From assembly GCA_964016885.1 (NCBI GenBank), contig OZ024740.1, positions 66,278,001 to 66,342,000 on the forward strand: a stretch of 64,000 bases of DNA. Reading direction: 5' to 3'. Shown one piece after another: positions 1,036 through 59,005 of the stretch. The position numbers were made by a program, and so were the translations under genes. How positions within the stretch are numbered: the stretch's first letter is position 1; each line of letters opens with the position of its first letter. The stretch comes from Eledone cirrhosa (taxonomy: Eukaryota). The notes below the pieces were generated by a model that saw only the letters and a list, made by a program, of their open reading frames with translations, was not told the DNA's origin and ran no database searches.

Positions 1036-1707
1036 TTATTTGTAAGTTGTGATGTTGCTGTTCCACTCATATTCTCTATTTAATTTTGGTTTTAATTCTT
1101 TTATGCTTACTGCCTCTGTAATTTGCCTAAACATTGCGTCTTTTCTGTGTGTGGATTCTATTTTTATTTCTATGCTCTCTAATCTACCCCTGTGTTCTAT
1201 CTTAGCATGTTGGTAGAGCACAGATGATTCTTTATTATCTTGGAGGTCTCGCCAGTGTTCATTTATTCGTTCCCCTATACTACGAGCTGTCTCACCTATG
1301 TACACTATATTTTTGTTTCTACATTGTCCTTCAGTACATCTTATGCTATACACTACATTTCTAGTTTTACAGTTAATATGTGGGCTTATTTTACAGGTTA
1401 TACATTTCTTATCTATACATGAGGGTCTTTGGAACGGGTATGTCTTGCTAATAAGTGTTTTTACGGAGGTACCAGGTCTTTCTACTATCTTAATATTGAG
1501 ATTATGTTTATTTAGGGCCCTTCTAAATGTGTAAGCTAGTTCGCCTCTAGGGGTTGTATTGATGAACATTACACTCTGGTATTTATTGCTATCATACCAT
1601 GAGTTTATTCTATTGGCCTTGTTCCTAGTTCTTTCTATTCTATTCCAAAATGTGCTCCTATACAAGAGGCAGGTCCCATTTATGTCATTATTTACCATTT
1701 TTTCCAT
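1036..1707 (-). CDS. PLE GIY-YIG endonuclease domain (continuation of RT ORF across a 1-nt frameshift)
   Basis: CxxxxCxxC linker, NVVYSIRC..C..YIGETARS..R..EH, conserved E and LN motif; overlaps the RT ORF end at an A6 run. Confidence 0.9.
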   Translation of the reverse strand: MEKMVNNDINGTCLLYRSTFWNRIERTRNKANRINSWYDSNKYQSVMFINTTPRGELAYTFRRALNKHNLNIKIVERPGTSVKTLISKTYPFQRPSCIDKKCITCKISPHINCKTRNVVYSIRCTEGQCRNKNIVYIGETARSIGERINEHWRDLQDNKESSVLYQHAKIEHRGRLESIEIKIESTHRKDAMFRQITEAVSIKELKPKLNREYEWNSNITTYK

Positions 1708-3542
1708 TTGGTTCTGGCTCCTTTATACACTCTGATTCTATCTCTCTGATTGTAGCCAGAGAACTGCATACGGTGGACGAAGTGTTGTATGTGTCTCTCT
1801 AGTTCTTCGGGGTTGCACATGCGGGACACATTTCTCATCACCCGTACCAAATCCGCAATCAGTATGTTGATTTTGGTATGATCCGAAATGGCCGAGTTTC
1901 GGTGGATCAGATGTTTGGAAGTCATGGGTTTGGCATAATGGGAATGGAGGATTTGTTTTTGGTTGTTAATGGTATCTAACCAGAGCTCTGTGTCTAGTAC
2001 AGGTAATCGATGGTTGGGGTGTCTACTTGGGTAGTCTATAGTAACTCTAATGCTCTGGTGGATGGAGTTTGCTATTTGCTGGATGCTTTCCATTGTGCTT
2101 TTCTCTAGTTCCTGACTGTTCTTTAGTGGGGGTGTCTTAACTACGATGTTTATATCATCTACGTAGCGGGAGTACATTATCAGGGTTAAGCTGTCTTCTA
2201 ATTGTTCATTAAGTTTTTGTTTAAGTCTACTGTCCCACCATACCATGAATAAGTTAGTTATGTCGCCTGCAATGCTAACACCAATGGCTGCTCCTTCCTC
2301 TTGGGCATATGTTTTACCATTAAATTTGAACATATGTTCCTTAAGGGTTAATTTTATGCTGGCCCCTACCGCATGTGCAATCATTTTCTTCAGTTCATCG
2401 TGGTTTTCGGGTGTCCGTATGGCTCTGGTCCACCCGTTCCATCTATCTGTGTGGGTTTTCTTGGCCATTGAGGTAATGGTAGTTGGTCTGCCTCTTGCTG
2501 GTCTTGTAGGGCACAGGTTGCTAAGGTCATAAGTGTCTAGGTAACTATTACTATGGGTAATCTTAAGTAGAAGTCCCAGCTCACTGGTATCAATCCCACG
2601 GAACTCAACCTTGCTCTCGCTGATCATTTCTACGCATTTCTCCACAGCAAAATCCACGACAATAGATGGATACAGGGACACAACATCCATACTGCCTATT
2701 ATGCAGTTTGTTAGGTCCCCAGATCGGTTACCCGCGCCGATTCTGCTGAGGAGGTCCTCCGTGCTGTCACACACATCTGGGGACATCTCAATGATGGGGC
2801 GTATGATCAGGGAGAGGAAGTAGGACAGTCTGTAGTTACTAGCAATGTTAGCCCCACAGACTGGCCGTGTTGGTGGTCCCGCGATAGGGTCCCAGCCCGT
2901 TTTATGGTCTTTTCGAAGCCCATACAACGCCGGCACGTCATTGTTCCAGGCCTGGAAGTTGTTGGCAGTCCTTTTGTTGGGCTGCATTATATTCGTCCAC
3001 ATCACCATATGGGCATTGAGGGCTTTTTCTCTATCATCATGCTCCTGTGGTGTTACCTCTCTTGTGTTAGTGATGTGGGGTTGCATTGCCTGGATGTAGT
3101 TTGGCAGGCTGTCAACCGACATTCTGTCAGACTTGTCTGTTGGAAAACATGCTATCTCTCCATTACGCGAGCGCTGCATGAGCTTACGCAAGCCATTTGC
3201 AGATTCTTCTCCCAGTTGCTGGGCCTCTATTCTATTATGCTTCTTGCTATACTGTTCTATAATATTTCTAAGTTCGGATTTAGCTATACTAAATTGTGCT
3301 TCTGTTTGTTCATCGACCTGCGACGGCAACTGCGTGCGTTTGTTAAATGGCAAAGTCGTGGCGTGGACTCGTCGTAGGTCGAATGATTTATCGGAGGGGT
3401 TATAAAACGGAGAGTTCCAGGCTGCTGCTTTATGTGTACTAGTGCTATTATTATTGTTAGTTGTGTTGTTTCTATTTCTATTTCCACCAACAGCCTCATG
3501 GTTGATTCTATGTCTCTCATAATTACTCCTGTCTCTTTCCAC
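1692..3542 (-). CDS. PLE reverse transcriptase (main part of frameshifted polyprotein)
   Basis: Motifs LYGLRKDHK..PTRPVC, GSMDVVSLYPSI, QEEGAAIG, YSRYVDDI, LPVLDTELW, YAKPM. Confidence 0.92.
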   Translation of the reverse strand: MERDRSNYERHRINHEAVGGNRNRNNTTNNNNSTSTHKAAAWNSPFYNPSDKSFDLRRVHATTLPFNKRTQLPSQVDEQTEAQFSIAKSELRNIIEQYSKKHNRIEAQQLGEESANGLRKLMQRSRNGEIACFPTDKSDRMSVDSLPNYIQAMQPHITNTREVTPQEHDDREKALNAHMVMWTNIMQPNKRTANNFQAWNNDVPALYGLRKDHKTGWDPIAGPPTRPVCGANIASNYRLSYFLSLIIRPIIEMSPDVCDSTEDLLSRIGAGNRSGDLTNCIIGSMDVVSLYPSIVVDFAVEKCVEMISESKVEFRGIDTSELGLLLKITHSNSYLDTYDLSNLCPTRPARGRPTTITSMAKKTHTDRWNGWTRAIRTPENHDELKKMIAHAVGASIKLTLKEHMFKFNGKTYAQEEGAAIGVSIAGDITNLFMVWWDSRLKQKLNEQLEDSLTLIMYSRYVDDINIVVKTPPLKNSQELEKSTMESIQQIANSIHQSIRVTIDYPSRHPNHRLPVLDTELWLDTINNQKQILHSHYAKPMTSKHLIHRNSAISDHTKINILIADLVRVMRNVSRMCNPEELERHIQHFVHRMQFSGYNQRDRIRVYKGARTKWKKW

Positions 3543-3546
3543 TGGC

Positions 3547-4173
3547 TCAATGTTGTTTATCTACCCTATTTTGTGTGTCTGTGTGTTCGTCTTGGTTATT
3601 CTCTTTGTCCTTAGTCTCCCATCTCCTTTTCCTTTTAATCCTATTACTTTCTCTTATTTCTCGGATTTCTGTGCTACTGTCATTACTTGTTTTCTGTGTC
3701 TGTGTGTTTGTTAAGATTGTGGTGGTGGTGAGAGGCATTGAATGCGTGTGTGTTGCTATTGTTGTTGTTGTTGATGTGTGTGTTGTTGCTATTGTTGTCT
3801 CCGTGTGTGTTATCGTTGTTGTGTGTGTTGTTATTGTTGTTTGTGTCTGCGTGTCTGTTGTTGTTGTATCTGGGTATGTTTCTGTTGTTTTTGTTGTTGT
3901 TGTTATTGTTGTTTGTGTCTGTGTGTCTGTTGTTGTTGGGATGTGTGTTGTATATGTGTGTGCGTATATTGATGCTTTTGTTTTTGATGCTCCAGCGTAG
4001 TTTTGTAAATGATTTTCTATTTCTGACAGACAACTAATCATATTTACCTTCTTGAATGTCGCAAATTTGGGTGGCAGACGTAACACAGACATTTCATTAT
4101 TATCTATTTCCGTGTTTCCATAAATGTTGGTATTTTCGTTGTTGAACTCCTCTGATAATGAGGTGTCGGCCAT
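3547..4173 (-). pseudogene. N-terminal region of the PLE polyprotein with (ACA)n low-complexity insert, frameshifted
   Basis: VLRLPPKFA..EIE then KSFTKLRW in another frame resembles the PLE N-terminal motif; followed by Thr/Asn-rich repeats. Confidence 0.6.
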
Positions 4174-4601
4174 GTTGATACCGTCAATTTTGTCGGGATA
4201 TCTATTGGTATACTCTATAGTATCCTGATTTAGCTTTGCCTGTTAAAGTGCTTATCACATTCTTGAGTAATGTACTGTTCTTCGGGGCGTATAAGGCTTA
4301 TAAATATTATTTTTTCTGCTGGTGTGGTGATTTTAGCTATTTCTTGAATTAGGTTACACACACACACATAGAACAAACAACTTACAATTAAGGACAAAAT
4401 GAAAACACACACACACATATAGAACAAACAACCAACCAACAATAAATAAATAAATAAATAAACAAATAGATAAATGAACACAAACACACACAGACACCCG
4501 GATGTGGAGCATGCGCAAACTGAGCACACAACACACACACAGAAACAAAATGGCGTAGGATAGAAGAAAGGAAAGGCACAGAAACGAAGAAAGGAATCCC
4601 C

Positions 4602-4646
4602 AGTCACTGAAGAGGTCACAGAGTGTGTGACGAAAGGACTATGACT
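4602..4646 (+). ncRNA. Minimal type I hammerhead ribozyme in inverted pLTR
   Basis: AGUCA-CUGAAGA-G-GUCACA gagug UGUGAC-GAAA-GGAC-UA-UGACU; canonical core, CUA cleavage triplet. Confidence 0.8.
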
Positions 4647-4862
4647 ATATATAAACAACTATCTGGTTGTAGAACCAACCAACCAGAAATTTATAAGTTT
4701 GTAAATTTGTAAATTTATAAATTTATAAATATATAATAAATTGAAGTGAAAGCAACTGGTGCGTGTGTTTCTTATTGGCAACATGACCCTCCCAAAGTAT
4801 AACAATATCGGTTTCAACACACGATTTCAGATAAAGAATCTTGCTAAACAAATTCAGAAACG

Positions 4863-12869: not shown

Positions 12870-15067
12870 TATAAACAATGAATAAAAACAAAAACAAGTT
12901 CCTTATATTTAAAAAAATAATCATTTTACGATCGTTTCTAGTATATATATATGTGTGTTGGTATGTATATCATATAGATCTATGTACAAATATTACAAAC
13001 TATCAGAGGAAATATACATACCTCCACATATAAATGCGGTCTTCAGAAATAATGAGATTTGTTTATTGAAAAAAAACAAAACAATTATTTAATATAATAG
13101 GTCTGTTTGGGAACAGGTTTTGAATTGACCAATAGAAAAGTAGTAAGAGGACAAGTTGATAGAATAGTAGTAGTAGAAATTTAATTTAGGGGTAGAGGAA
13201 TTCAGACTTTTGAATGGAAAGAATACTTTGAATGAAAAGAATACTATGGGGGTGAAAAGAGGTCAAGCCGGTGAAGGATACATGAAAATTTGATGTTATT
13301 TAATAATAATCTTAAAAACGAAGGAGAGTTAAATTTTAGGGTAAAGGAATTAGTGAGAACTACCAATCTTATTTAAAACTCAAAGAATTTAGGTCTATAA
13401 CAAGAAATTTAATTAATTGATAGGTATAATTATAGGGATAATTTATATTAATTCATATGGATGTGATAAATAAGAATTAGATGTTATTAAAGAATGTTGC
13501 TAAACACGAAGGAAAATAAAATTTTGGGATACGTGTAGTAGTGAAAAATACCAATCTTATATTGACTACAAAGAATCTAGATACATAACAGGAAATTAAA
13601 TTAATTTATATGTATACTTTTAGGTATTAATTTTAGGAAAAGAGAGTTGTAAGGGGGAAATAGAATTATGAGGTTCTCTGTAGGAAAGTACTAATTATAG
13701 GTTAACTAAATTTAAAAAACTAATTATAATAATATGTAAAATATAAGTGTAAGGAGTATATTAATTAGGTTTATAATATTTGAAAGTTCTTCTAATTCTA
13801 TGATTGTAAGATATAATTAATTCTTGTCGCTTATTTAATAAGATATCCTTAGATTTCATTATTTCAAAATGTTCCTGGGAGCACAAGCTACACTCATATC
13901 TGTTATTTTGATAAGGGGTGGCTCTTTTGAGCACACTCCAGGTCAGGTTGTATTCGATATTCTTTTTTCTATAATTATTAATTGCTTCAGCCAAGGGTGT
14001 TGTATTAGCTAATGCGGCTTTTTTAAAACTATGTTTGTGGGTATTAAATCTTACTTTAAATTGGTTCGACGTAGCTCCTATATATGAATAAGTTGAGTCC
14101 TTAGTGCTAATTTTACATTTATAGACTATGTTATTAATAAGACAATTTCCCTTTAATGGGATATTACTTTTGTTTCTACTGTTACAACCATTCGTGAATA
14201 TTATATCAGGGGAGTTAGTCAATTTGGTGTGGAATTTACTCGATTTGTTATAAGTGAAGGAGATGGTGGTTTGTTGCGGTTTATTTTAGTATTATTTGGT
14301 TTGGTGTGTTGGTGGTATATTCGTGGTTATTTAACATTTATATGCGTAGTACGCACTTATATTTTGTTGTATATCTTTGGTAGTGGAGTAGGAAAATTTG
14401 ACAGTTGATCTATTTAAAATATGATGGTATTTATGGTTTGGCGGGAAGATTTTCTCTAGGATAGTAACCAATTTTAGGGGATATTATCTTTAATTTGTAG
14501 ATTAAATGGAACATTATACCATGTAACTTGTCTATTACGGTTTCGATGTTGTTTTCTATATTTATACGATGTATCAGAGAGTTAGAATTAGTGAATTTAT
14601 TTTATATAGGTTTGGTTAGATTAACTGATTTAGGTGTTTCAGTCTGATTATTAGGAATTTTGTTAGTAATGTTATTAACGTATATTGGAGTATTAGGATG
14701 AATGGTTTTTTGAAAGTCAGTATATTTTATGTGAGAAGAGGTAGAGAAATTAAGTTTTAGGTTGGTATTTTGGGGTGTAGTGTGAGTGGCATTTAGGTGT
14801 GGGTTTTTCATTTGGTGTTTGATGGTAATATTGGGTTGTATGTTTGAAGTATTATTGGTGCAAGTTATATACACTAATTGGATTTTGTGGCCGCTTCTAG
14901 CTAAAGCTTCGTTATAAAAGGGCGCATTTTATCGAATACATCCTGGTTAGATGAAAGGCTAGAAATTCTGAGTGAGATATTATATGCTACGTTTTTAAGG
15001 ATAGATCTAGGGTGATTGGATTGTGAGTGTATGTAATGTAAGTTTTGGTTGGGTTTATGGTAAGGTT

Positions 15068-15070
<3 letters not shown>
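12870..15070 (-). mobile_element. Degraded 5'-truncated Naiad-like PLE (RT thumb, GIY-YIG at 13761-14222, AT-rich tail)
   Basis: NIVYKCKI..YIGAT..FKVRFNTHKHSF..CSLC..E..LNKRQEL; broken upstream frames (WYNVPFN, FPPNHKYHHILNRSTVKFSYS). Confidence 0.8.
12920..13053 (-). ncRNA. Type I hammerhead with long (about 100 nt) stem II region, in the tail of the Naiad-like element
   Basis: AUUAUUU-CUGAAGA-..-GAAA-CGAUCG-UA-AAAUGAU: 7-bp stem I, palindromic stem III; base of stem II imperfect. Confidence 0.6.
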
Positions 15071-15135
<65 letters not shown>

Positions 15136-15350
15136 ATATATATTGAGTTATAAACTCGAAATAGTCAATTAAAATTAAATACCTCATAGAAGGGAATATT
15201 TCCGTGCCGTGTAATACAAATGAATATATGAGAGGGATGAACACTGATGCAAGTATACATGTGTTCGAATTGCAAATGACCAACTTAGCAAACTCGGTCA
15301 TTTGCAATTCGAACACTTGTATCAGTGTTCATCACTCTCATATATTCATT

Positions 15351-15380
<30 letters not shown>

Positions 15381-15383
<3 letters not shown>

Positions 15384-15786
15384 CGTTTCTGAATTTGTTT
15401 AGCAAGATACTTTATCTGAAAACGTGTGTTGAAACCGATATTGTTATACTTTGGGAGGGTCATGTTGCTAATAAGAAACACACGCACCAGTTGCTTTCAC
15501 TCCAATTTATTATAAATTAAAAAATCTTTTCAAAAAATTTATTTTTTTAAATAAATTTCCGGTTGTGTAACAGGCTCTGCGTGTTCATTTGTGAGAGATA
15601 GTAATGTGTGACGAAACAACTTTAACAATATATCAACAACCGTCCGGTTGTGGAACCAACCAATCAACCGGAAATTTATTTAAACATTTTTTTTTTTTTT
15701 TTAAAGATTTTTTAATTTATAATAAATTGGAGTGAAAGCAGCTGGTGGGTGTGTTTTTTATTGGCAACATGACCCGCCCAAAGTAT

Positions 15787-15792
<6 letters not shown>
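15381..15792. repeat. Solo inverted pLTR remnant related to the element at 618-4865
   Basis: 15381-15570 matches the reverse complement of about 4700-4865; 15665-15792 is its inverted copy; TA tracts on both sides. Confidence 0.8.
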
Positions 15793-15864
<72 letters not shown>

Positions 15865-15905
15865 GATATATTAACAAATGGAAACTATATTTATAAAACC
15901 ATATT

Positions 15906-15970
15906 TATTTCATTATACATATTTCAAGGACACCAAGTTACATTATGGTGTGCTTTCATCAGATAAAATA
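15906..15970 (-). ncRNA. Type I hammerhead ribozyme
   Basis: UAUUUUAU-CUGAUGA-AAGCACACCA..UGGUGUCCUU-GAAA-UAUGUA-UA-AUGAAAUA. Confidence 0.8.
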
Positions 15971-16129
15971 TAATATAGATCAGTTTTATAAATAAATATT
16001 GACATACTCTTAAAGAATGCGACCTTTTCTGTTGTAAGCTCCCGGATAGTCTATCCGGGAGCTTCCAACAGAAGAGGTCGCATTATTTAAGTACATATTT
16101 TAATACTGAGAGTGTTAAAAAGCAATTAA

Positions 16130-17590
16130 ATGTAAAAATAAAATAAACAATTTCTGGTTACTACGAACTAAGTCTCTCACTATTGCTAGGCTAAAAAAAT
16201 ATACTAGGTGGGACGGAATTAAAATGAGACCCTTTTAAGAGGTATAAGTAATAAACCGACTATATCTCACGGTGACGGGTCAACAAGTGAGGGGCCAAAA
16301 TACTAAAGAAACTACCACGAAATAATAAAAGTTTCTACCCCAGGCACAAGCCCAGCAACCACTCAGTGCAAAAAAGTAAATTAATACGAAATAATAATTC
16401 AGGGTCCCGAAAAAGAATACTAATACTATCTCTAAGGGTGCCGCCACGATACAAAAGTTCTAGTGCAAGCTACATAAAAGCTCGTACGAAGTAAAAGTAA
16501 AAATTTGATACGGAAAATTAATTCAGAACCCCCCCCCCCCCCCCCCCAAAAAAAAAAAATACTGATAAACGAGAAATTAAAGCAGATGCCACTAAGAAAT
16601 ATAGAAAGCACGGAAGAGGGGCAGCGGTCGGATAAGAGGGCAAGTATCCGGGGTCTAACACATCTGCTATAAAAAGCGGATTCGGCCAAATCTTTCATAG
16701 AATAGGGAAAGGCGGTGGGGGTACTGAGGCTACAAGGGACCGAGGGTTTGCCTCGGGTGGGCGAGAAAGAGACGACGACAAAGAAAGAGAACTGGGGTGG
16801 AAGGACTAGGGAGGGATGGGGGGAATAAGGAAATATAAAGGAAGCGATAAAAAGATATAAAAGAAGGTATTCCGTCTCCCTTAGCAAGCACGGGTTACCC
16901 ATTACAAAATCGACAAGTGGGTTGTTATAGCCCTAGTCTAACCCCCCCCCCCCCCCCCCCCCCGAGTCATTATGGGGTTTGAGGGCGAGGTAAGTCCTAC
17001 GCAATCTGTGTTTACATGCAGTAACCAGTTCATATTTCTTGTTTAGGAGTTGGTCCGTCGAAAACACCATTTGTAACGTTTCCTCCGAGCATAAATTGCA
17101 CGGACGGCGTCCTCCCGTGTAAGAGTTGGCTCTGGACAGTAATCTCCAAGTAAGATCATAGGTAATGTTGTTATCCTTGAGGTCCCATATGTGGTCCCCC
17201 TCCCTAGTATCTTCTTTGACCTCACGCCCAGCTGTAGCCGGCACTATCAACGCATGAATGGGTCTCCTCCACCCCCTCTCCTTCTTTCTCCTGCTGGCAG
17301 GTTTAGCTACTCCTTCCCTCCACAAATCGCCATCATAGAATTATTATCTCAACTACAAACTTTTGACCAATCCCTGTGACAATCACTTTGACCATATATG
17401 GAATTGCCCCTTGAGAAGCAAGGCTATTCAAATACCAGGATAAACATGTTCATTTAGTCCAGAATTAGCCGTCGAAACGGCTTGAGCTCAGCCGTCGGGG
17501 TCCCACTCGTTCCTATTACCCACTCTACTACCCTAAATATTGAGTACTTTGGGGCGTTATGGTCCACCTGGTTCCTTACCACATATCTTC
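16130..17590 (-). mobile_element. Truncated Naiad-like PLE: endonuclease C-terminus (16933-17185), 3' tail and inverted pLTR (17190-17590)
   Basis: HIWDLKD..W..L..A..Y....CNLC.EE....LNKKYELVTACKHR; tail homologous to 19370-19960. Confidence 0.8.
17406..17501 (+). ncRNA. Type I hammerhead, U3-A8 core variant
   Basis: GCCCC-UUGAGAA-..GGCUA..UAGCC GUC-GAA-ACGGCU ugagcuc AGCCGU-C-GGGGU; GUC triplet. Confidence 0.7.
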
Positions 17591-17608
17591 CGTTATATAT
17601 ATATATAT

Positions 17609-19029
17609 ACAGAACCCCAGGATGATATCATCAAAATCACTGTAATGGGACACAGGAGAGAGGAGTTGCCCCGAATCAGTGGAGGATCAGTAACATCGTC
17701 CCAGTGCCAAAGATGGGAGATCTCTCTAACACCAACAACTACAGGCGGATCTCACTGACGTCACTTGTGGCAAAGACCCTCAACAGGATTATTCTTAACA
17801 GGATCCAGCCTGAGATGGAGAAGAAGCTCAGGGAACACCAGAACGGCTTCAGAGAGGGTAGATAAACCACCAGTCACATCCTGATACTGAGGAGGATATT
17901 AGAGGGAGCTAGAGCAAAGTGCCTTCCTGCGGTCACTGTTTTCATTGACTTTAGGAAGGCCTTTGATTCTGTGGACCGTTACTGCCTGATGAAGATCTTA
18001 CAGGCTTATGGAATCCCCAAGAAGATAGTGGACCTGATATCACTGCTCTACACCAACCCCAAAGCCCAAGTCATTACACCTGATGGGATGACAGAGTTCT
18101 TTGAGATAATGGCTGGAGTGCTCCAGGGAGATACATTGGCTCCCTACCTTTTTATCATCGTAGTGGACTATTGTATGCGCCTTGCACTGGAGAAACACCA
18201 GGACTCTGGCTTTACTGTAGCACCGGCTCAGAGCAGGAGAGTTAGGGCGAAAAGGGTATCGGATGCTCAATTTGCCGACGACATAGTTTTACTGGCAAAT
18301 ACAGTGAAGGAGGCAGAGGATTTGATGCGGGAGGTTGAGAATGTGTCGATGAGTGTGGGGCTGAGAATGAATGAGACTAAAACAAAATATCTGGTAGAGA
18401 ATGTTGAGAAGCCAGAGGGGATCACTAATGTAGGCGGGAAGCCGCTAGAATTGGTTGAGGGCTTCCTGTATTTGGGAGCAAAGATTCGGAATACGGAAGA
18501 TGGTGTGGTTGAGAGGAAGAGCAAGCCCTGGGCGGCGTGCCACAGCTTGAGATCGGTGTGGAAGTCCGACCTTCGTAGAGACATGAGAGTCCGCCTCTTC
18601 ATTGCTGTAGTGGAGTCTGTGCTGCTGTATGGGTCTGAGACTTAGACACTGACCAAGAAACTCACTCAGATGGTGGATGGGTGCTACACGAGAATGCTGA
18701 GGATGGCTCTGAACATTAATCAGTATACACTGAGGATGAAAAACTCAGATCTGTATGGGAGCATCCAAAAAATCAGCTCAAAGGTGACACAGGGGAGACT
18801 GAGGTTAGCTGGACATGCTCACCGACATCCAGAGTTGACATTGCACTCAGTGCTCCTTTGGGAGGCCCTACATGGACACACTAGAAGTGGAAGACCAAGG
18901 TTAATGTATGGTGATGCCCTAAGGACAGACACTGGTCTGTTGGAGACGCAGGACATGGTGGCGGTAACGAGGGACAGAGACCGCTGGAGAGAACTCGTCC
19001 ATGGATCTCGGGAATTTTACCCGCCTTAG
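17609..19029 (+). pseudogene. 5'-truncated RTE-type LINE (RT domain plus C-terminus) with in-frame stops
   Basis: VPVPKMGDLS..NYRRISL, QNGFR, FIDFRKAFDSV, GVLQGDTLAPYLF, QFADDIVL, FLYLGA; stops near 17862 and 18643; TA flanks. Confidence 0.93.
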
Positions 19030-19063
19030 AAAAATAAAATATATATATATATGTATATATATA

Positions 19064-19098
<35 letters not shown>

Positions 19099-19189
19099 CG
19101 AAGGAAATGTGGTAACGAACCAGGTGGACCATAACGCACCAAAGTACTCAATACTTGATGAAGTAGAGTGGGTAATAGGGACCAGTAAG

Positions 19190-19283
19190 ACCCCGACAGC
19201 TGAGCTCAAGCCGTTTCGACGGCTAATTCTGGACTAAATGAAAATTTATCCTGGTATTTAAATAGCCGATCTTCTCAAGGGGT
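19190..19283 (-). ncRNA. Type I hammerhead, U3-A8 core variant
   Basis: Reverse complement of the 20246-20339 fold. Confidence 0.7.
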
Positions 19284-20177
19284 AATTCCATATACGGTCA
19301 AAGTGATTGTCAAAAATCAGTAGTAATTATGTGGTTGCAAATTAGTACCCCCACCACCCCCTCCCCTAGTCTATGATAGATTTGGCGGACTCCGACCTTT
19401 ATAGCAGTTGGCTTAGACCCCGGATACTTGCCCCCTTTTTCCGACCGCTCCCACTATTCTCTGTGCCCTCTATATTTCTTAGTGGCACTTATGCCTTATT
19501 TTTTCGTCTCAGTATTTCTTGCCTCGCTTTTCTTCTGGGCGGGGTAGATTCTGAATTTATTTCTCCGTATTCTACCTTTATTTCGTACGAACTTTCATGT
19601 AGCTTGTTTTAGATCTTTTAGAGTTAGCATTAGTATATATTTTTCTCGGGACTCAGAATTATTATCTCGTACAAGTTCACTTGGCTGCACTGGGTCGTTG
19701 CTGGCCCGGGATGGAAACCTTTATTGTTTATTTCGTGGTAATCTCTTTAGTATTTTGGCCCCTTTTGTTGACCCGTCACCGTATCATTTACGTACTTATA
19801 CCTCTTAAAAGGGTCCTTGCCTATCCGTCCCACCTAGTTCTTTTACTTATTTCGTTATTTCTTTATTTCTTTCTTTCTTTACTTCTTTCTTTCTTTATTT
19901 TATTCTAGCCTAACAATAGCCTGAGACCTAGGTCGTAGAATTTAATTTACTTTACTTTTTTCTTTACACTTATTTGCTTTTCTTCACTCTCAGTATTTTT
20001 CTGTCCTATATATTTCTACCCCCCATTGTTCTACCTACCGTTCCGACTTCCTCCCCCTCCCCCTCCCCTGTATCTTCTTTGACCTCATGCCCAGCTGTAG
20101 CTGGCACTACCAACGCTTGATTGGGTCTACTCCACCCCCTCCCCTCTTTCTCCTACTGGCAGGTTTAGCCACCATCT

Positions 20178-20348
20178 CCCCTACTAATTTGCAACCACAG
20201 AATTACTACTGATTTTTGACAATTACTTTGACCATATATGGAATTACCCCTTGAGAAGATCGGCTATTTAAATACCAGGATAAATTTTGATTTAGTCCAG
20301 AATTAGCCGTCGAAACGGCTTGAGCTCAGCTGTCGGGGTCTTACTGGT

Positions 20349-20429
<81 letters not shown>

Positions 20430-20567
20430 CCTAGAGTGAGTGAGAGATGAGATTTATTATAATGCTCGGTGTGTTTGTAAACAAACATCCCGTATTAAGC
20501 CGTAGTGTCCAGCAACCAGCGTTGCTCGTTTGTTCAATACTGACAAAGGAACGCTGTACTAGTTTCC

Positions 20568-20643
<76 letters not shown>

Positions 20644-20794
20644 GGAAACTAGTTACAGCGTTCCTTTGTCAGTATTGAACAAACGAGCAACGCTGGTTGC
20701 TGGACACTACGGCTTAATACGGGATGTTTGTTTACAAACACACCGAGCATTATAATAAATCTCATCTCTCGCTCACTCTAGGTATATATATATA

Positions 20795-20833
<39 letters not shown>

Positions 20834-20994
20834 ACCAGTAAGACCCCGACAGCTGAGCTCAAGCCTTTTCGACGGCTAATTCTGGACTAAATGAAAATTT
20901 ATCCTGGTATTTAAATAGCCGATCTTCTCAAGGGGTAATTCCATATATGGTCAAAGTGATTGTCAAAAATCAGTAGTAATTCTGTGGTTGCAAA
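20178..20994. repeat. Palindrome of about 800 bp centred on a (TA)n tract (20571-20640)
   Basis: Arms are near-identical reverse complements containing two different pLTR fragments; a fourth U3-A8 HHR copy lies at 20843-20936 (-). Confidence 0.9.
20246..20339 (+). ncRNA. Type I hammerhead, U3-A8 core variant
   Basis: ACCCC-UUGAGAA-GAUCGGCUA..UAGCCGUC-GAA-ACGGCU ugagcuc AGCUGU-C-GGGGU. Confidence 0.75.
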
Positions 20995-21024
20995 TGTTTC
21001 CATTATATATATATATATATATAT

Positions 21025-21690
21025 AATGGAAAAATTTGAATAGGAACAAAACAGAGAGGCAGTACAACGAATGTTTATTAATTTCACGCTCTGGAGAGTG
21101 GGGTGTTGGTGGGGGACGACGTTTCGGGCATAAGCCCTTGCTCAGGTGAGAAGTGTGTGGGAACAGAGTTCAAAGGGTGTGTAGGGGAGTGGTGGAGAGA
21201 CATATAGCGAAAGGAAACGGTGCGAATGAAAAAAATAAAAATAAAAATAAAAATAAAGCATGATCAAAATACAAGGAATGAAATAAATTTAAATATAAAA
21301 GCATGATAAAAATAAACTGAAATTAAAATGGGGGTAAAACAGGTGGTGGAATGGTGTGGGGTGAGTCGGGGTGGTGGCGGGTGGAGTGGGGAGAGGGAGA
21401 CGGGGTGTCCGAGCGGGGAGGGCTGAAGTTGGTGTGTGTGTGTAGGTGTACGTGTGTGTGTGTGTATGTGAAAGTAATGGTTGGGGGAAGAACGGGGTTC
21501 CATGTTCAGGAAGAGGTGTGTGTGGGGGTGTTTTGGGGTCGGAGTAGACACTCCGACCCACAAACCCCCACAAACGTGTGTGGATAGAGTGGTGGGGGGA
21601 GAGGAATCAGGAGGCTGAGGGTGTAAATATGTGGTGGAAAGCACGTGTGTGGGGTTTATATATATACCTAGAGTGAGAGAGATGAGATTT
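21025..21690 (-). repeat. GT/CA-rich dispersed repeat, probable PLE tail
   Basis: Reverse complement aligns with 43530-43960; degenerate HHR-like CUGAGCA-AGGGCuuauGCCC-GAAAC at 21115-21146. Confidence 0.7.
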
Positions 21691-22765
21691 CTGACAGATA
21701 GTGAGCGATCGTGTACAGACGGACAAAACGTTGTACATTCCGTGAAATATTGACGGAAAGAATTACACAAACAAGAGATGTTACAAATGATACTTTTTGT
21801 AGTGATGACATCACTTGGCATTCGTAATTGCATTATCGGAAGTGGAAAGCAAAGGCTTTTATCAATTGCGATGTCAATATGGTGACTAGCAATGCTATTA
21901 TTTGCTATATGAGAGAAAAATATATAGGGAAACATACAATATTCTAAACAACTAGACGGTAATTTGTTCAATAATGAATAGTTCACAATGTTTACTAACA
22001 AGTCATGTGTCAAAAGAGTAAATCTAATCACAGAGTAAAATACAGAAGCTTGCTGTCGAAACCGCTGTACAAATACATACTACCCTCTCTCACTCACTTA
22101 TTTTCCTATAAGCAGTCTTCTTACTCCACCCTCCCTCACTCTCTACCACTGTGTCTCATGCAACAATGGACACTAATACATACACACTTACTCACTCTTG
22201 CACAGAATATGCATTACTATCTCTCACAATTGCACACGCAGAAGCTCTTACACAAATATGCAAACTCATGAACAGACATTAGTTCTAATGCTTAAACATT
22301 TAACATAATTGTCTAACCAGTAACTATTAATTGAATGAATGATTCAATTATAAAATTGGAATGTAATATAATACCAGTAATTATATGTTCCAATGATAGG
22401 TTCTGAACAAACTCTGAAACAAATATCTAATTAAACGAAACCGTTTTGATGGGAGATTTTTCGTCATATTGCAGTTATATTGTTTCTAATTTTATTTTTG
22501 CCGTTGCTCGTTCTATAATATAATGGATAAGTATGAAATTAATCTTAATGGGTCATGAGTTAAACTCACGAAACATAGCCAATTCAAGCGAAATTGTATT
22601 TTCCTACCTCCCTTGAAACGCTTCTATAATCTGGCAGAGAAAACAAACAGATAATGTGTTTAGAAAATGACGTCAAAAGATTGTTAGTGTTGGAGCCAAG
22701 TGGCGTTGAAATCAATTGTCTTCACACTGCTAATACTGTTGTAAAATAGTTTATCGAATATGTTC

Positions 22766-22810
<45 letters not shown>

Positions 22811-22849
22811 CACCCACAACCACTCACGCGCGCACACACACACGCACGC

Positions 22850-22942
<93 letters not shown>

Positions 22943-23177
22943 ATATATATATATAATATAAATATATATATATATATATATGTGTGTGTATGTATATAGA
23001 AAGTACATTTGACTACATCATCGAGTTATTCTAGATGTACGTTTGCCAATTGCATCGACGGTTATGAGATGATATTTATATAGCTACGTATTCATACATG
23101 CATACATACATACATCTATACCTAAATTCATACATACATACATAGATACATACATACATACATACATACATACAGAC

Positions 23178-34215: not shown

Positions 34216-34272
<57 letters not shown>

Positions 34273-34275
<3 letters not shown>

Positions 34276-34454
34276 CAAAGGAATTGTGGTAAGGAACCAG
34301 ATGGACCATAACGCATCAGAGTACTCAATACTTAGGGTAGTAGAGTGGGAAATAGGAAAAAGTATGACCCGACGGCAGAGCTCAAGCCGTTTCGACGGCT
34401 ATTCAGAAATAGCCGTTGAAACAGCTTGAGCTCTGCCGTCGGCGTCATACTTTT

Positions 34455-34458
<4 letters not shown>
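34273..34458. repeat. Short fold-back pLTR terminus of the 17190/19097 family within (TA)n
   Basis: Homologous to 19097-19230 with a 45-bp inverted repeat. Confidence 0.75.
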
Positions 34459-34514
<56 letters not shown>

Positions 34515-44090: not shown

Positions 44091-44133
44091 ACGTTGCTGA
44101 CGATAGCTTATATGCTTGAAACTAGTACGTCGT
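44091..44133 (+). ncRNA. Minimal type I hammerhead
   Basis: ACGUUG-CUGACGA-UAGC uuauau GCUU-GAAA-CUAG-UA-CGUCGU; palindromic stem III ACUAGU; 3' half also at 20545-20570 and 20643-20666. Confidence 0.65.
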
Positions 44134-44769
44134 TCCTTTGTCAGTCTTGAACAAAAGAGCAACTATAGTTGCTAAGCATTGTACGGCTTAATTCGGGATG
44201 TTTGTTTACAAACACACCGACGATTATAATAAATGTTCGGAAAATCCATGCGTACATATATATATATGTGCACGTATGTAAATATATATACATACTACTG
44301 TACGTCTGTATACATATATACATGTACGTGTACATACGTATATATATATATAAACCCCACGTGGATTTAGTAACGGGTGCTTCTGTATGTTTGAACGAAA
44401 TGCCTGTTGAGAAAGTGGTTTTCCTCGTTCATCATTCTACCAAAAGCCGAATATATTTTTTATGTAAGCTGACGGTAATTGATTTAGCAGCCGTAGAAAC
44501 CAAAAAGATGGAATTTACCATCATTCTAGCGGGTCCGGGTAAAGACTTTTCATCCATTTATTTTATAATTTGTCTGACCCGAATTTTCTTGGTCGTTTTT
44601 CGGCTGTGCGAGTGATTTTAAGCATTGTCTCTGTGTGTTGGTACTTAAACGATAGTTATAGCTCTGGTTTAACCAAACTATTGAGCCCGGTGCCACACAT
44701 TTCGAAGATTGTGTTTCGTTATTTCGTGGGCCGAAATTCCGATTCTCAATAATTTATTTGTATTTATAT

Positions 44770-47855: not shown

Positions 47856-48120
47856 GTCGAAACGGTTTGAGCTCTGCCGTCGGGGTTTGACTCTTTTGCT
47901 ATATATGTATATATATATATATATATAGGAAAATGTATGACCCCAACGGCAAAGCTCAAGCCGTTTCGACGGCTATTTCTGGACTGACATAGCCGTCGAC
48001 ACGCCTTGAGCTCTGCCGTAGGGGTCATACATTTTCCTATTACCCACTCTACTACCCTAAGTATTGAGTACACTGGTGCGTTATGGTCCATCTGGTTCTT
48101 TACCACAACTCCTTCGTTAT
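47856..48120. repeat. Triple fold-back pLTR terminus of the 17190/19097 family
   Basis: Alternating orientations of GTCGAAACGGCTTGAGCTCTGCCGTCGGGG. Confidence 0.75.
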
Positions 48121-48854
48121 ATATTCTTCTTTCTTATGTTTTTTATATATATTTACCTCTGCTGCGTTTATCTGTTTCTCTCTTACTGCTTCCCCGCTCT
48201 CTCTGTTTCTCTCACCTTCTTTCGCCCCCTCTGTTAGTTTCACTTTCTCTCGACTGACCTCTTCCTCACACTTCCACTCACTCAGTCTCTGTTTCTCCCT
48301 TTCTCACTTCCTCCCGTTTGGCTTGTGTGGGTCTCTTCTTCCTTACACCTCACACACATCGACACGGTCTGCACCTCTCTCGCTCATGAAATCCACCCAG
48401 CTTATGCTGACCGGACAACCGTGTTGCTTGTTTATTTTCCTATCTTCGGTTTCCTTTAATCTTTCTATGCTGTTTGCTTGTCCCCCTCGCTTTACGCGAA
48501 TTACTGGTCCCAATAACTTTTTTTAGTTATTGCTCGCACCAACCTGGGATATCTGATTTTTAATGCAATGAAATACCAATGATGGTTGGAAAATCACTGA
48601 CGAAGGACTATTTTTATCATATGTAACCCATGTGCAACCACACAATATTCTTCTTTCTTATTTCTTCTGGAATAGATATAAATGCAATTGTATTGAGAAA
48701 AAATGACTAATTCACTTTCAGTTTCTACGACAATTTGTTCTAGAGCTCAAGTCAGATGGGCCTCGGTACGAAATTAAATGCTATTAATATACATAAATAC
48801 ATACATACACACAAACAAAAATACACCTATGTATTCTGTAAATAAATAACTGTT

Positions 48855-56750: not shown

Positions 56751-58222
56751 TTAGGGAGAAGTGTTTAGACGGGGTCCGTATTTGTTAATAAAGTGAGATT
56801 CCTTGCTGATGCGCTGGGTGTGAGTGGCATTATCTTTAAATTTGTAGAGGAGGAAAATTCTGAAGTTGGGATGATTTTGGACGGCACAGGTATCAATGTG
56901 TCCACTCAGTGGTATTTTCCTGTATTCCCGTATTTTAATTTGGGATCTATGGACAGTCATGCGTTGGCGGAGGCTGTTTTTTGTCTGGCCTATGTATTGT
57001 TCTCGACGACCTGAGCAAGTTAATACATATATTAGATTTTCTGATGCGCATGTGAAATTGTGTTTAACTATAAAACGTTGTCCTTCTTTGAAATAGAATT
57101 CCGAACCCTCTATTAGGTTGATACATATGCCACAGTCGCGTCTATCGCATTTTTTTACTGTGGGTTTCGTTGTTGTGGTTGGTAGTACTTTGGAATGTGC
57201 TAGGATGTTTTTCATTGACTTAGATTGTCTTTTGCTCTTTATGATATCGTGTGTTCGTAGGATTTGGTTCATTCTATGGTCCTTTTTCAACACAGGGATG
57301 TTCTGGAGGATGGTGTCAAATGCCTCATTGTTGAGGGGGTTGTGTGTGGAGATGTATGGAAAACCTTTAAGTTTCGGTTGATTTACCTTAGGGTGTCTAA
57401 GGTCCTGGGTCCTGAGTTTTAGGGCACGTTGGATTCCATTGTCAATTAGTGATGCAGGGTAGTCCCTGCCTATGAGTGTGTCCTTTAGTTCTTGTAGCCG
57501 TATGTAACAAGTGTTTTTATTGGAGACTATAGTACAGATTCTCTTGGCTATGTTGTAGGGAATATTAATTTTAAGGTGTCTAGTGTGGCAAGAGTTGAAA
57601 GGAAGATATTGCTTGGAGTCTGTGGGCTTGTAGTATATGTCTGTTTCTATTTTTTTGTTATGAATCTTAATGAGGATGTCGAGGAAGGGGAGTTGTTGAT
57701 GGCTGTATTCCATCGTGAAGTTCATATTCGTGTTGAGCCCATTTATAAGGGTGTGAAATTCTTTAGGTTTCTCGATGTTTTCGTGCCAAAGGATGAAGCA
57801 GTCATCTAGATATCGCTTCCAGTTCCTTTCTATGTGTAAGTGGAGAGTGTTTCGAAATTTGTTTAGTACTTTAGTGTAGAGGTTTATTTCCAGGAATCCC
57901 ATGACTAGGTTGGCATAAGTGGGGGCTGTTTTCGTTCCCATAGCGGTCCCAGATTTCTGTTTGTAGGGTTTGTTATTGAAAACGAAGTAATTGTTCTCCG
58001 AGATAAATTTGAGTCCCTCTATCACGAATTCTTTTTTGATGCGCTGTGGAAGTTCATTTTGGTAATTATCCAACCAAAATTGGATAGCTTCTATTCCTAG
58101 TTTGTGGGGGATGTTGGAGTATAGGTTGACTACATCGAACGTCACTAGTAGGGTTTGTGCAGAAAGGGGCATATTAGGGAGGTGATTGAGCATATCTAGG
58201 TCGTCTCTTATATAGCTTTTTG
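56751..58222 (-). CDS. PLE RT core, CxxxxCxxC linker and GIY-YIG endonuclease
   Basis: LVTFDVVNLYSNIP, QKSGTAMGTKTAPTYANL, WKRYLDDCF, LPFLDI, YYKPTD, CDRRDCGIC, NLIYVLTC..YIGQT..R..H. Confidence 0.95.
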
Positions 58223-59005
58223 ACGTGTTTGAGAAAAGGCTTGAGAAGGGTATCAATGAAGTTGCTAAGGCGGTGGGTTTCGCAAGCGGGGCCTGATATT
58301 ATAGGTCTTAATTTGAGATCATTGGGTGAGGGGACATTGATGACTCTGTCTGTGGCTTTCTTGCATGCCTTACCTATTAATTCGCGCTTATGTACTTTAG
58401 GGATACCGTAGAAAAGGCTGGATTTACTTGTGAAGTCTGTGATGAAGCTGAATTCCTTCTTATTGAGTCCTTCTTTGTGTTGGTTGATCAGAGTTTTTAG
58501 GTTTCTCATCATTTTCTGTTGATTGTAGTGTTCAGCCTTTTCGTAGTATGTTTCGTTTACCAAAGTGGAGAGCGCTAAGTTGATATAGAATTCTGTCTCC
58601 ATTAGGACTACTGTACTCCCTTTATCAGCCTCTTTAATTGTAATGGTTCTGTCGGTTTTTAATCTATTTAATTCTTCCCATTCTTTCTTGTTGAGGTTTG
58701 GCTTGTGTTTTTGTCTCTGCAAGTGTTGGTAAGGGAAGTTTCTGATGTGTTCACAGAATTCGTTCAGGATTTTATTGCTACCTTTTGATGGGGTGTAATT
58801 GCTTCTATTTCTGGCTAATGATTCCACCTCATTGTACTGGTCGAACAGTTCTTCACTGAGTCGTAACTTTCTACAGAAGTATTTGATGTCTACCTTCATT
58901 TCATAGTAGTTAGGACGTTGTGGGGTCGGTGTGAATTTAAGACCTTTGGAGAGTAAGGTTTATAAGGTTGGGTGTTGGTTCTGCACTAGTTAGATTGATA
59001 ATTTG
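58223..59005 (-). pseudogene. N-terminal RT region of the same polyprotein (frameshifted)
   Basis: LLSKGLKFTPTP, KEADKGSTVV, FYGIPKVHK, LRPIISG; joins SYIRD across a 1-nt frameshift. Confidence 0.9.

Follow-up and report, generated by a model that had tools for sequence, protein, structure and literature searches.

The window analysed here, a 64-kb stretch of DNA taken as a whole, contains a hammerhead-like motif whose core reads UUGAGAA where a standard hammerhead has CUGANGA, and it raises the question of how the 3·8 core pair came to change and what such a motif does for the element that carries it. A preliminary description of the locus had proposed four copies of a non-minimal hammerhead with a compensatory U3-A8 pair, in the tail of a Naiad-like element.

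Four motifs from two insertions and a mirror duplication

A sequence check located all four motifs, at 17406-17501 and 20246-20339 on the plus strand and at 19190-19283 and 20843-20936 on the minus strand, each with U3-A8. The copy at 20246-20339, a type I hammerhead motif of the youngest subfamily (A7), has a stem I of ACCCC/GGGGU (20246-50/20335-39), the core elements UUGAGAA (20251-20257) and GAA (20312-14, within GAAA at 20312-20315) and a stem III of 6 bp including one G·U pair (20315-20/20328-33), with GAGCUC (20322-20327) in its loop; the predicted cut falls at the GUC site, after 20334. Stem II consists of a G-C and an A-U pair, a bulged U and then six base pairs (CGGCUA/UAGCCG). Its interior, described before as a loop of roughly 35 nt, is indeed long, but in folding it measures 37 nt and is partly paired, with a distal hairpin. 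The 17406-17501 copy has a broken pair in stem II. In the 20843-20936 copy C15.2 is replaced by A, so that the mismatch ascribed to its stem III exists but sits at pair 15.2-16.2 and not at the base pair of the stem.

The hammerhead is the minimum-energy fold of 20246-20339. Its stability lies within the range of shuffled sequences (z -0.87; 40 of 200 shuffles fold as well), and z was positive, near 0.4-1.0, in three of four wider folded stretches and likewise positive in the wider 20246 stretch. Rfam returned no hammerhead match at the gathering score, and none among the 77 matches obtained for 15000-23000 at E<=10. With its UUGAGAA core the motif is missed by CUGANGA searches, as had been anticipated.

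Comparison with the family showed how the copies are arranged. A 5'-truncated insertion of the 3' UTR/pseudo-LTR has its direct arm, 95% identical to the young unit, at 19342..20354 (plus strand), ending in a short (+17/19) end before a TA run, and its inverted arm at 19082..19347 (minus strand), which holds the 19190-19283 motif and a long (+97/99) tail; the motifs at 19190 and 20246 are therefore two arms of one insertion. An older insertion with A5-type flanks carries the 17406-17501 motif and a long tail in its direct arm (17195..17609, plus strand), and its inverted arm (16102..17197, minus strand) contains the end of the endonuclease coding sequence (about 17197-16960, by translation) and 3' UTR. 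The motif at 20843-20936 belongs to a mirror copy (20828..20995, minus strand) inside the 20187-20995 palindrome, an 840-bp mirror duplication with 92% identity between its arms that includes both the 20246 and the 20843 copies. Since they derive from two insertions and one mirror duplication, the four motifs are not four independent observations. The mirror duplication also takes in another repeat, related to 44118-44326. Moreover, comparison with the family identified a two-armed mini-insertion consisting only of the hammerhead 3' half and the tail at 34259..34460 and a second two-armed mini-insertion of the hammerhead 3' half at 47900..48124. Between the two larger insertions lies a broken reverse-transcriptase fragment (17640-19030, plus strand; Pfam RVT_1, E 2e-20), which we take to be RTE-like and whose 3' part recurs at 122-597.

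The parent is a Penelope-like element

A DNA search of the same genome gave 46 matches from the best 40 of 358 candidates, and in longer genomic stretches a coding sequence for reverse transcriptase and endonuclease was found upstream of the motif in the same sense. The parent unit is 3,531 bp long, with an ORF of 717 aa; within this unit 190 nt separate the GUC site from the ATG downstream of it, and the stop codon is followed by the next GUC site after 1,187 nt. The motif is thus located in the terminal repeat of a Penelope-like element, as the preliminary description had it. In the young family there were 119 scored protein matches, nearly all 98% identical, and by our own count 31 of the 119 have open frames of at least 784 codons. 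The 717-aa protein carries RWR (35), DKT (116), YRDD (348) and CxCx5C (572) and, in its C-terminal part, a GIY-YIG-like motif (591), CxxC..E (670) and N..CxH (689). A motif scan of it found no CCHH and no match to CX2-5CxxC, and a Pfam search of the ORF gave no match at E<=0.1. The motifs of the Hydra clade also occur in 111-116 of 120 homologues and agree by eye with the published Hydra proteins in the supplement text of PMC8557442. The targets are (TA)n, with 193 of 210 3' ends reaching a TA run within 200 nt.

Because the order of reverse transcriptase and then GIY-YIG, together with RWR, DKT and CxCx5C and without CCHH, matches the features given in the available parts of PMC8557442 (Craig et al. 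2021), we assign the parent to the Hydra clade of Penelope-like elements, and its sequences mark it as recently active. The label “Naiad-like” has to be given up. Naiads have an N-terminal endonuclease, according to the available parts of PMC8557442, and the clade calls for an N-terminal GIY-YIG, DKA and a CX2-5CxxC finger, whereas here GIY-YIG is C-terminal, DKT is present and CX2-5CxxC is not matched. Our own first assignment, to the Nematis clade, was dropped once the Hydra-clade features of the same source had been compared. The element shares with Hydra-clade elements, as the available parts of PMC8557442 describe them, the RT and then GIY-YIG order, an RWK-like motif, DKT, CxCx5C, CxxC/CxH and the lack of CCHH, as well as (TA)n targets, an inverted arm with a one-sided tail and a hammerhead near the 3' end. 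In contrast, those elements are generally under 3 kb and the unit here is 3.5 kb with a long 3' UTR, and the Hydra hammerheads listed in that source have C3-G8, a loop II of 3-10 nt and a stem III of 3-4 bp, unlike the variant core of the young subfamilies here.

Two other broken Penelope-like elements in the window, also with RT and then GIY-YIG, lie at 1036-4655 and 56751-58959 (both minus strand). They were rejected as parents of the hammerhead family: neither has linked copies, and protein comparison, made for one of the two, gave a weak match only. Some matches came up when their flanks were scanned with a loose core pattern. Contigs of a second organism (run X5), aligned with L059:5560-5960, cover the element tail and part of the 5' core; no difference is listed at positions 3 or 8, at thin coverage.

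The 3·8 pair has passed through four states

Searched genome-wide as exact core with fixed flanks, the motif gave 5,070 matches with U3-A8, 1,559 with C3·A8, 43 with U3·G8 and 9 with C3-G8, counts that include both arms of an insertion; the reversed control of each pattern gave 0 matches. C3-G8 is not over-represented when the A-family counts are pooled (Fisher p 0.33). To place these states we clustered 177 copies with positions 3, 7 and 8 masked and obtained nine subfamilies, a table in which G8 copies are over-represented because they were fetched on purpose. Ranked by mean distance to their own consensus, these are B1 (12%, U·G and C-G), B2 (9%, U-A), A1 (8%, U·G), A2 (7%, U-A), A4 (4%, C·A), A3 (3%, C·A), A5 (3%, U-A), A6 (2%, U-A) and A7 (2%, U-A). 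With a pattern open at positions 3 and 8, A1, the oldest A subfamily, has U3 in 16/16, G8 in 14/16 and A8 in 0/16 copies. A hand tally of the first 100 of 232 family B matches gave 79 U-A, 11 U·G, 6 C-G, 1 C·A and 3 other (Fisher p 8e-5, not corrected for descent), where some of the C3 calls sit in a run of four C and may be one-base deletions. The canonical CUGAGGA core occurs in part of the oldest subfamily, in the same scaffold.

Trees of the endonuclease DNA (43 rows each) form a ladder from which A1 branches first, and a single 100/100 branch holds A2, a grade of C·A copies and, at its tip, the young U-A copies. AU tests on 42 rows rejected the C·A rows as one clade (p 2e-77), old and young U-A copies as one clade (p 1e-11) and a single A8 clade across A and B (p 2e-33). 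In these tests the groups were named after the trees had been seen, A2 and B2 are represented by one row each, the long-branched L257 was left out and L086, which one of the endonuclease trees labels wrongly as family B, was counted with the C3 rows. The masked tree of the motif region places A3 before the young subfamilies and does not separate the order of A4-A7. Furthermore, a metagenome search returned eight loci, three of which represent one related element, 37% identical, with CUGAGGA (C3-G8) at the same place; the remaining five gave short matches and no convincing motif. Every Hydra-clade hammerhead row in File S2 of PMC8557442, as available to us, has CUGANGA with C3-G8.

By these comparisons the outgroup state of the pair is C3-G8, and the C·A subfamilies lie in the trees on the trunk towards today's family and do not form one side clade. 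The likeliest path reconstructed from the sequences leads from C-G through U·G to U-A, then to C·A and back to U-A towards the active family, and on it position 8 would have changed to give U-A at least twice. The word “compensatory” therefore describes only part of this history: the pair was reached through U·G, but 1,559 C3·A8 copies belong to subfamilies ancestral to the active one. All five changes at positions 3 and 8 are transitions, which fits a pair held to pyrimidine-purine geometry, but relaxed constraint too.

The U3-A8 swap alone is not new, and the novelty first attached to it does not stand, since U3-A8 hammerheads have been published (PMC4209133, PMC3088659). Cervera and De la Pena (2014; PMC4209133, available in part) reported about 1,300 matches to such hammerheads in Penelope-like elements. 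The Cercyon Penelope-like elements of Schistosoma mansoni described there resemble the present family in having a type I motif in a pseudo-LTR, a U3-A8 core, a helix I of 4-5 bp, a long helix II, a palindromic helix III region and thousands of mostly solo copies. The present family differs from them in its full helix III of 5-6 bp, its structured loop II of about 37 nt, the lack of an extra base between 9 and 10.1 and its place in the Hydra clade; dated subfamilies with U·G and C·A states also set our family apart from what the available text says of Cercyon. Natural U3-A8 hammerheads listed by Perreault et al. (2011; PMC3088659, available in part) show the same core swap, described as tolerated, as isolated examples, unlike the within-family path and C·A lineage found here. 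What is unusual here, as far as the sequences go, is a core pair passing through all four pyrimidine-purine states, including a mismatch phase, within an otherwise fixed core. In the literature searched, which left most subscription papers outside, we found no report of a within-family path of the 3-8 pair or of a C3·A8 lineage, and the available parts of PMC2553840, PMC12192606 and PMC7151607 contain no rates for 3-8 mismatches.

Little variation outside the 3·8 pair, N7 and loop II

Across the nine subfamily consensuses none of the 10 other core positions, the 10 stem I positions or the 6 positions of GAGCUC varies, and 1 of 8 positions in stem III and 3 of 14 in proximal stem II do; 29 of 39 loop II positions vary, as does N7. 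Invariant are U4 G5 A6, A9, G12 A13 A14, A15.1-U16.1 and H17, and a consensus that breaks stem I or III, the outcome that would have spoken against the original proposal, was not seen. Subfamilies A2-A7 were first found by similarity, and part of the core invariance is ascertainment, because the patterns used for A1 and B fixed GA and AG; U4, left open in the family B search, reads T in 89 of 100. The type I architecture, with three helices surrounding the core and helix I open, is present, and a stem III of 5-6 bp across the family differs from the absent or very short helix III of minimal hammerheads, so that the non-minimal type I fold with U3-A8 is borne out.

In 25 real copies near their own consensus, 87.5% of the cells pair. 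Two-sided changes occur in 21 cells in the whole structure against 11.9 in shuffled data, with 0 of 500 shuffles as high (relatedness uncorrected), and the covariation check on the family found three pairs with two-sided changes in stem II. The structure beats all slid controls, and in two of five measures it does not beat the shuffles (446 and 492 of 500). All three helices came out of RNAalifold as well, with a single pair changed on both sides. In the family A copies folded, a competing hairpin in which GAAA is buried was predicted at 0.24-0.87. The hammerhead fold is predicted to be most favoured in B1, B2, A2 and the youngest subfamily A7, and at 0.15-0.39 in A3-A6, from which changes gained in A7 raise it to 0.75.

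The stem III loop had been thought to hold a palindrome, UGAGCUCA, that could drive dimerisation. Dimers are indeed favoured in folding (13.9-16.5 kcal/mol), but only GAGCUC is conserved, as three older subfamilies have U where UGAGCUCA ends in A. A possible pseudoknot between loop II and stem I (CCAG/CUGG, in A7) was set aside because the match is not kept in other subfamilies, and no conserved tertiary contact between helices I and II was seen in the subfamily alignments. An apparent C/G hot spot in loop II was set aside as query bias, G being found in 0/64 young copies from other searches.

Insertion ends and tandem arrays

The 3' ends fall into two classes, 17/19 nt after GUC in 93 of 210 and 97/99 nt after it in 64 of 210. 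Both ends could be classed in 66 of 75 two-armed insertions, and in 60 of the 66 a short end is combined with a long one (binomial p about 1e-12 against 50%). As both 3' ends lie past GUC, the cDNAs cross this site, and the templates must have been uncut or rejoined there. Copying stops mainly at the top of stem II, 35-48 nt upstream of GUC, as is seen in 20 of 30 family B 3' halves, in 12 of 72 ends of a second pass and in a roughly tenfold step in summed contig depth, depth not being copy number. Of 72 resolved 5' ends, four map no more than 2 nt from the cut site, where about 1 would be expected (post hoc p 0.02), which gives a weak hint of cleavage. Palindromic mini-insertions of about 270 bp, whose two arms each end close to the top of stem II, occur at many loci and carry markers of different subfamilies, and so arise repeatedly.

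The pattern of ends resembles that of Poseidon of Anolis (Frangieh et al. 2024; PMC11167929, available in part), in which two internal RT starts 3' of the hammerhead define the tail, the cut site is read through and the targets are AT-rich; the tail of the present element is about 80 nt. Unlike here, Poseidon belongs to a different clade and has a canonical C3-G8 core, with stems I and II overlapping the ORF start. According to the available text of that study, core mutants of Poseidon had no effect on insertion in vitro and cleavage needs protein.

Head-to-tail arrays contain up to four full units within one insertion. In the four-unit arrays at C1:437.20 Mb (L059-L060) and C1:91.47 Mb (L064-L065) alleles alternate with period two (at 1 and 4 sites), which may reflect copying from two templates or from one of two units, a subsequent duplication of DNA or an effect of assembly; in others among the eight tandem-array loci examined, unit differences come in blocks. 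In the array at C1:377.71 Mb the 3'-most unit and the inverted arm share two alleles absent from the upstream units, so that one monomeric circle does not fit, and no other route is proved either. Across the eight loci the alleles do not discriminate between a circle and a multi-unit transcript.

A different array (L356; C2, about 356.030-356.032 Mb) is flanked by TA runs and repeats a 299-bp unit seven times in tandem, the first copy being partial. Every full copy comprises an entire U3-A8 hammerhead, in which loop II is shortened, together with the 5' UTR and the ORF's first 29 nt, and two neighbouring units share one change; among the listed contig pieces matched to the unit none bridges junctions, and they are little informative. 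By its composition this array is a retrozyme-like derivative of the element: the 7 x 299-bp array (C2:356.03 Mb), derived from the element's pseudo-LTR, has the layout of non-LTR retrozymes (PMC7229834; bioRxiv 10.64898/2026.07.22.740005, both available in part). Unlike those small tandem units, the copies in the window are the arms of insertions in which an autonomous element is truncated. A further tandem of about 65 copies of a 55-bp ORF piece (L065/L380; C1, about 91.49 Mb) lies at the junction of two arms of one insertion.

What the hammerhead may do for the element

We consider it somewhat probable that the motif is an inherited hammerhead of a Hydra-clade element that persists as a weak putative ribozyme, probably assisted by dimers or by the protein of the element, and that transposition can likely dispense with its cutting in some rounds. 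U·G and protonated C·A pairs are isosteric. The scaffold would tolerate wobble geometry at 3·8, and the present U3-A8 would reflect the return of a drifting pair to Watson-Crick pairing and not strict compensation. Occasional predicted cleavage would trim unit-length RNA from read-through transcripts, and most cDNA would be made on uncut or rejoined RNA. Several points count against this explanation, among them the ordinary stability of the fold, the competing hairpin in family A and the lack of a C3-G8 excess in the pooled counts. Free drift would also visit all four pyrimidine/purine states by transitions, and template switching between subfamilies could mimic reversion. Moreover, cores with U·G, C·A or even U-A might have almost no activity left, because core-region mutants are weak in a type III hammerhead, where the available parts of PMC9901934 give low activity for every mutant, single or double, except the G3-C8 swap.

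A likeness to hammerheads by chance, which the folding energy within shuffle range and the lack of an Rfam match might suggest, is so improbable as to be negligible. The case against it rests on descent, with 5,070 exact matches against 0 reversed and a constant location within one element; hammerheads of other Hydra-type elements occupy a matching position, and the relatives that hold the canonical core in the same scaffold by their sequence already contradict it. That cleavage is essential, was never lost and yields unit-length or circular templates appears unlikely. C3·A8 copies would then either cut adequately, use a shifted register in which C3 pairs with G7 and N7 is absent, or be cut in trans through mixed dimers with U3-A8 relatives. 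G7 is present in 94 of the first 100 C3·A8 matches (hand count), and C3 and G7 arise on the same branch, a coincidence that is weak because N7 changes often. The four-unit head-to-tail arrays and the 299-bp array with its complete hammerhead would fit such templates, yet multi-unit transcripts or a later duplication of the DNA account for the block-wise and alternating differences without circles. All subfamilies have stems I and III and GAGCUC in common, and the few 5' ends near the site agree with cutting, but the main stop lies upstream of GUC and not at it, and in the available text of PMC11167929 cleavage is dispensable in vitro and no RNA ends lie at the site.

Unlikely too, in our view, is a motif that no longer cuts and is kept as a protein-binding and RNA-pairing scaffold, whose GAGCUC loop (2+6+1 nt on a 5-bp stem) would pair two template RNAs, with priming of the two target strands from different start sites. 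In its 2+6+1 layout the loop is similar to retroviral dimer-initiation loops. Folding favours dimers, GAGCUC does not vary among the nine subfamilies though stem III already has 5-6 bp, the C·A trunk made at least 1,559 copies and the allele sharing at C1:377.71 Mb is not given by a single monomeric circle. The one short and one long end of the 60 of 66 classed insertions would also follow, but one RNA primed twice explains this pattern equally well. Against the scaffold, U4, G5, A6 and A9 of the 5' core do not change even though most copies end short of them, the 3-8 pair returned to Watson-Crick pairing about three times, and the A7 changes lift the predicted hammerhead fold. We therefore keep the inherited, weak and occasionally cutting hammerhead as the best explanation.

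A bolder claim, which we regard as doubtful, is that in this lineage the 3·8 pair, which hardly varies in other hammerheads, is free among C-G, U·G, U-A and C·A and the ribozyme yet works, or that its main job is now two-template pairing through a GAGCUC kissing loop for two-ended insertion. If it is true, the genome keeps a dated natural walk of a ribozyme across its catalytic core, with a mismatch phase of more than 1,500 copies. The role of hammerheads in Penelope-like elements is an open question in the available parts of PMC8557442 and PMC4209133, and the family offers a natural test series of nine dated subfamilies with four core-pair states on one scaffold, with intact young elements as protein source. 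Should the versions with C·A and U·G prove able to cut, descriptors state the accepted core rule too strictly, and families of this kind escape searches. Should they fail to cut, the element multiplied for several subfamilies without a ribozyme while the rest of the core was kept, which would point to a second, structural role.
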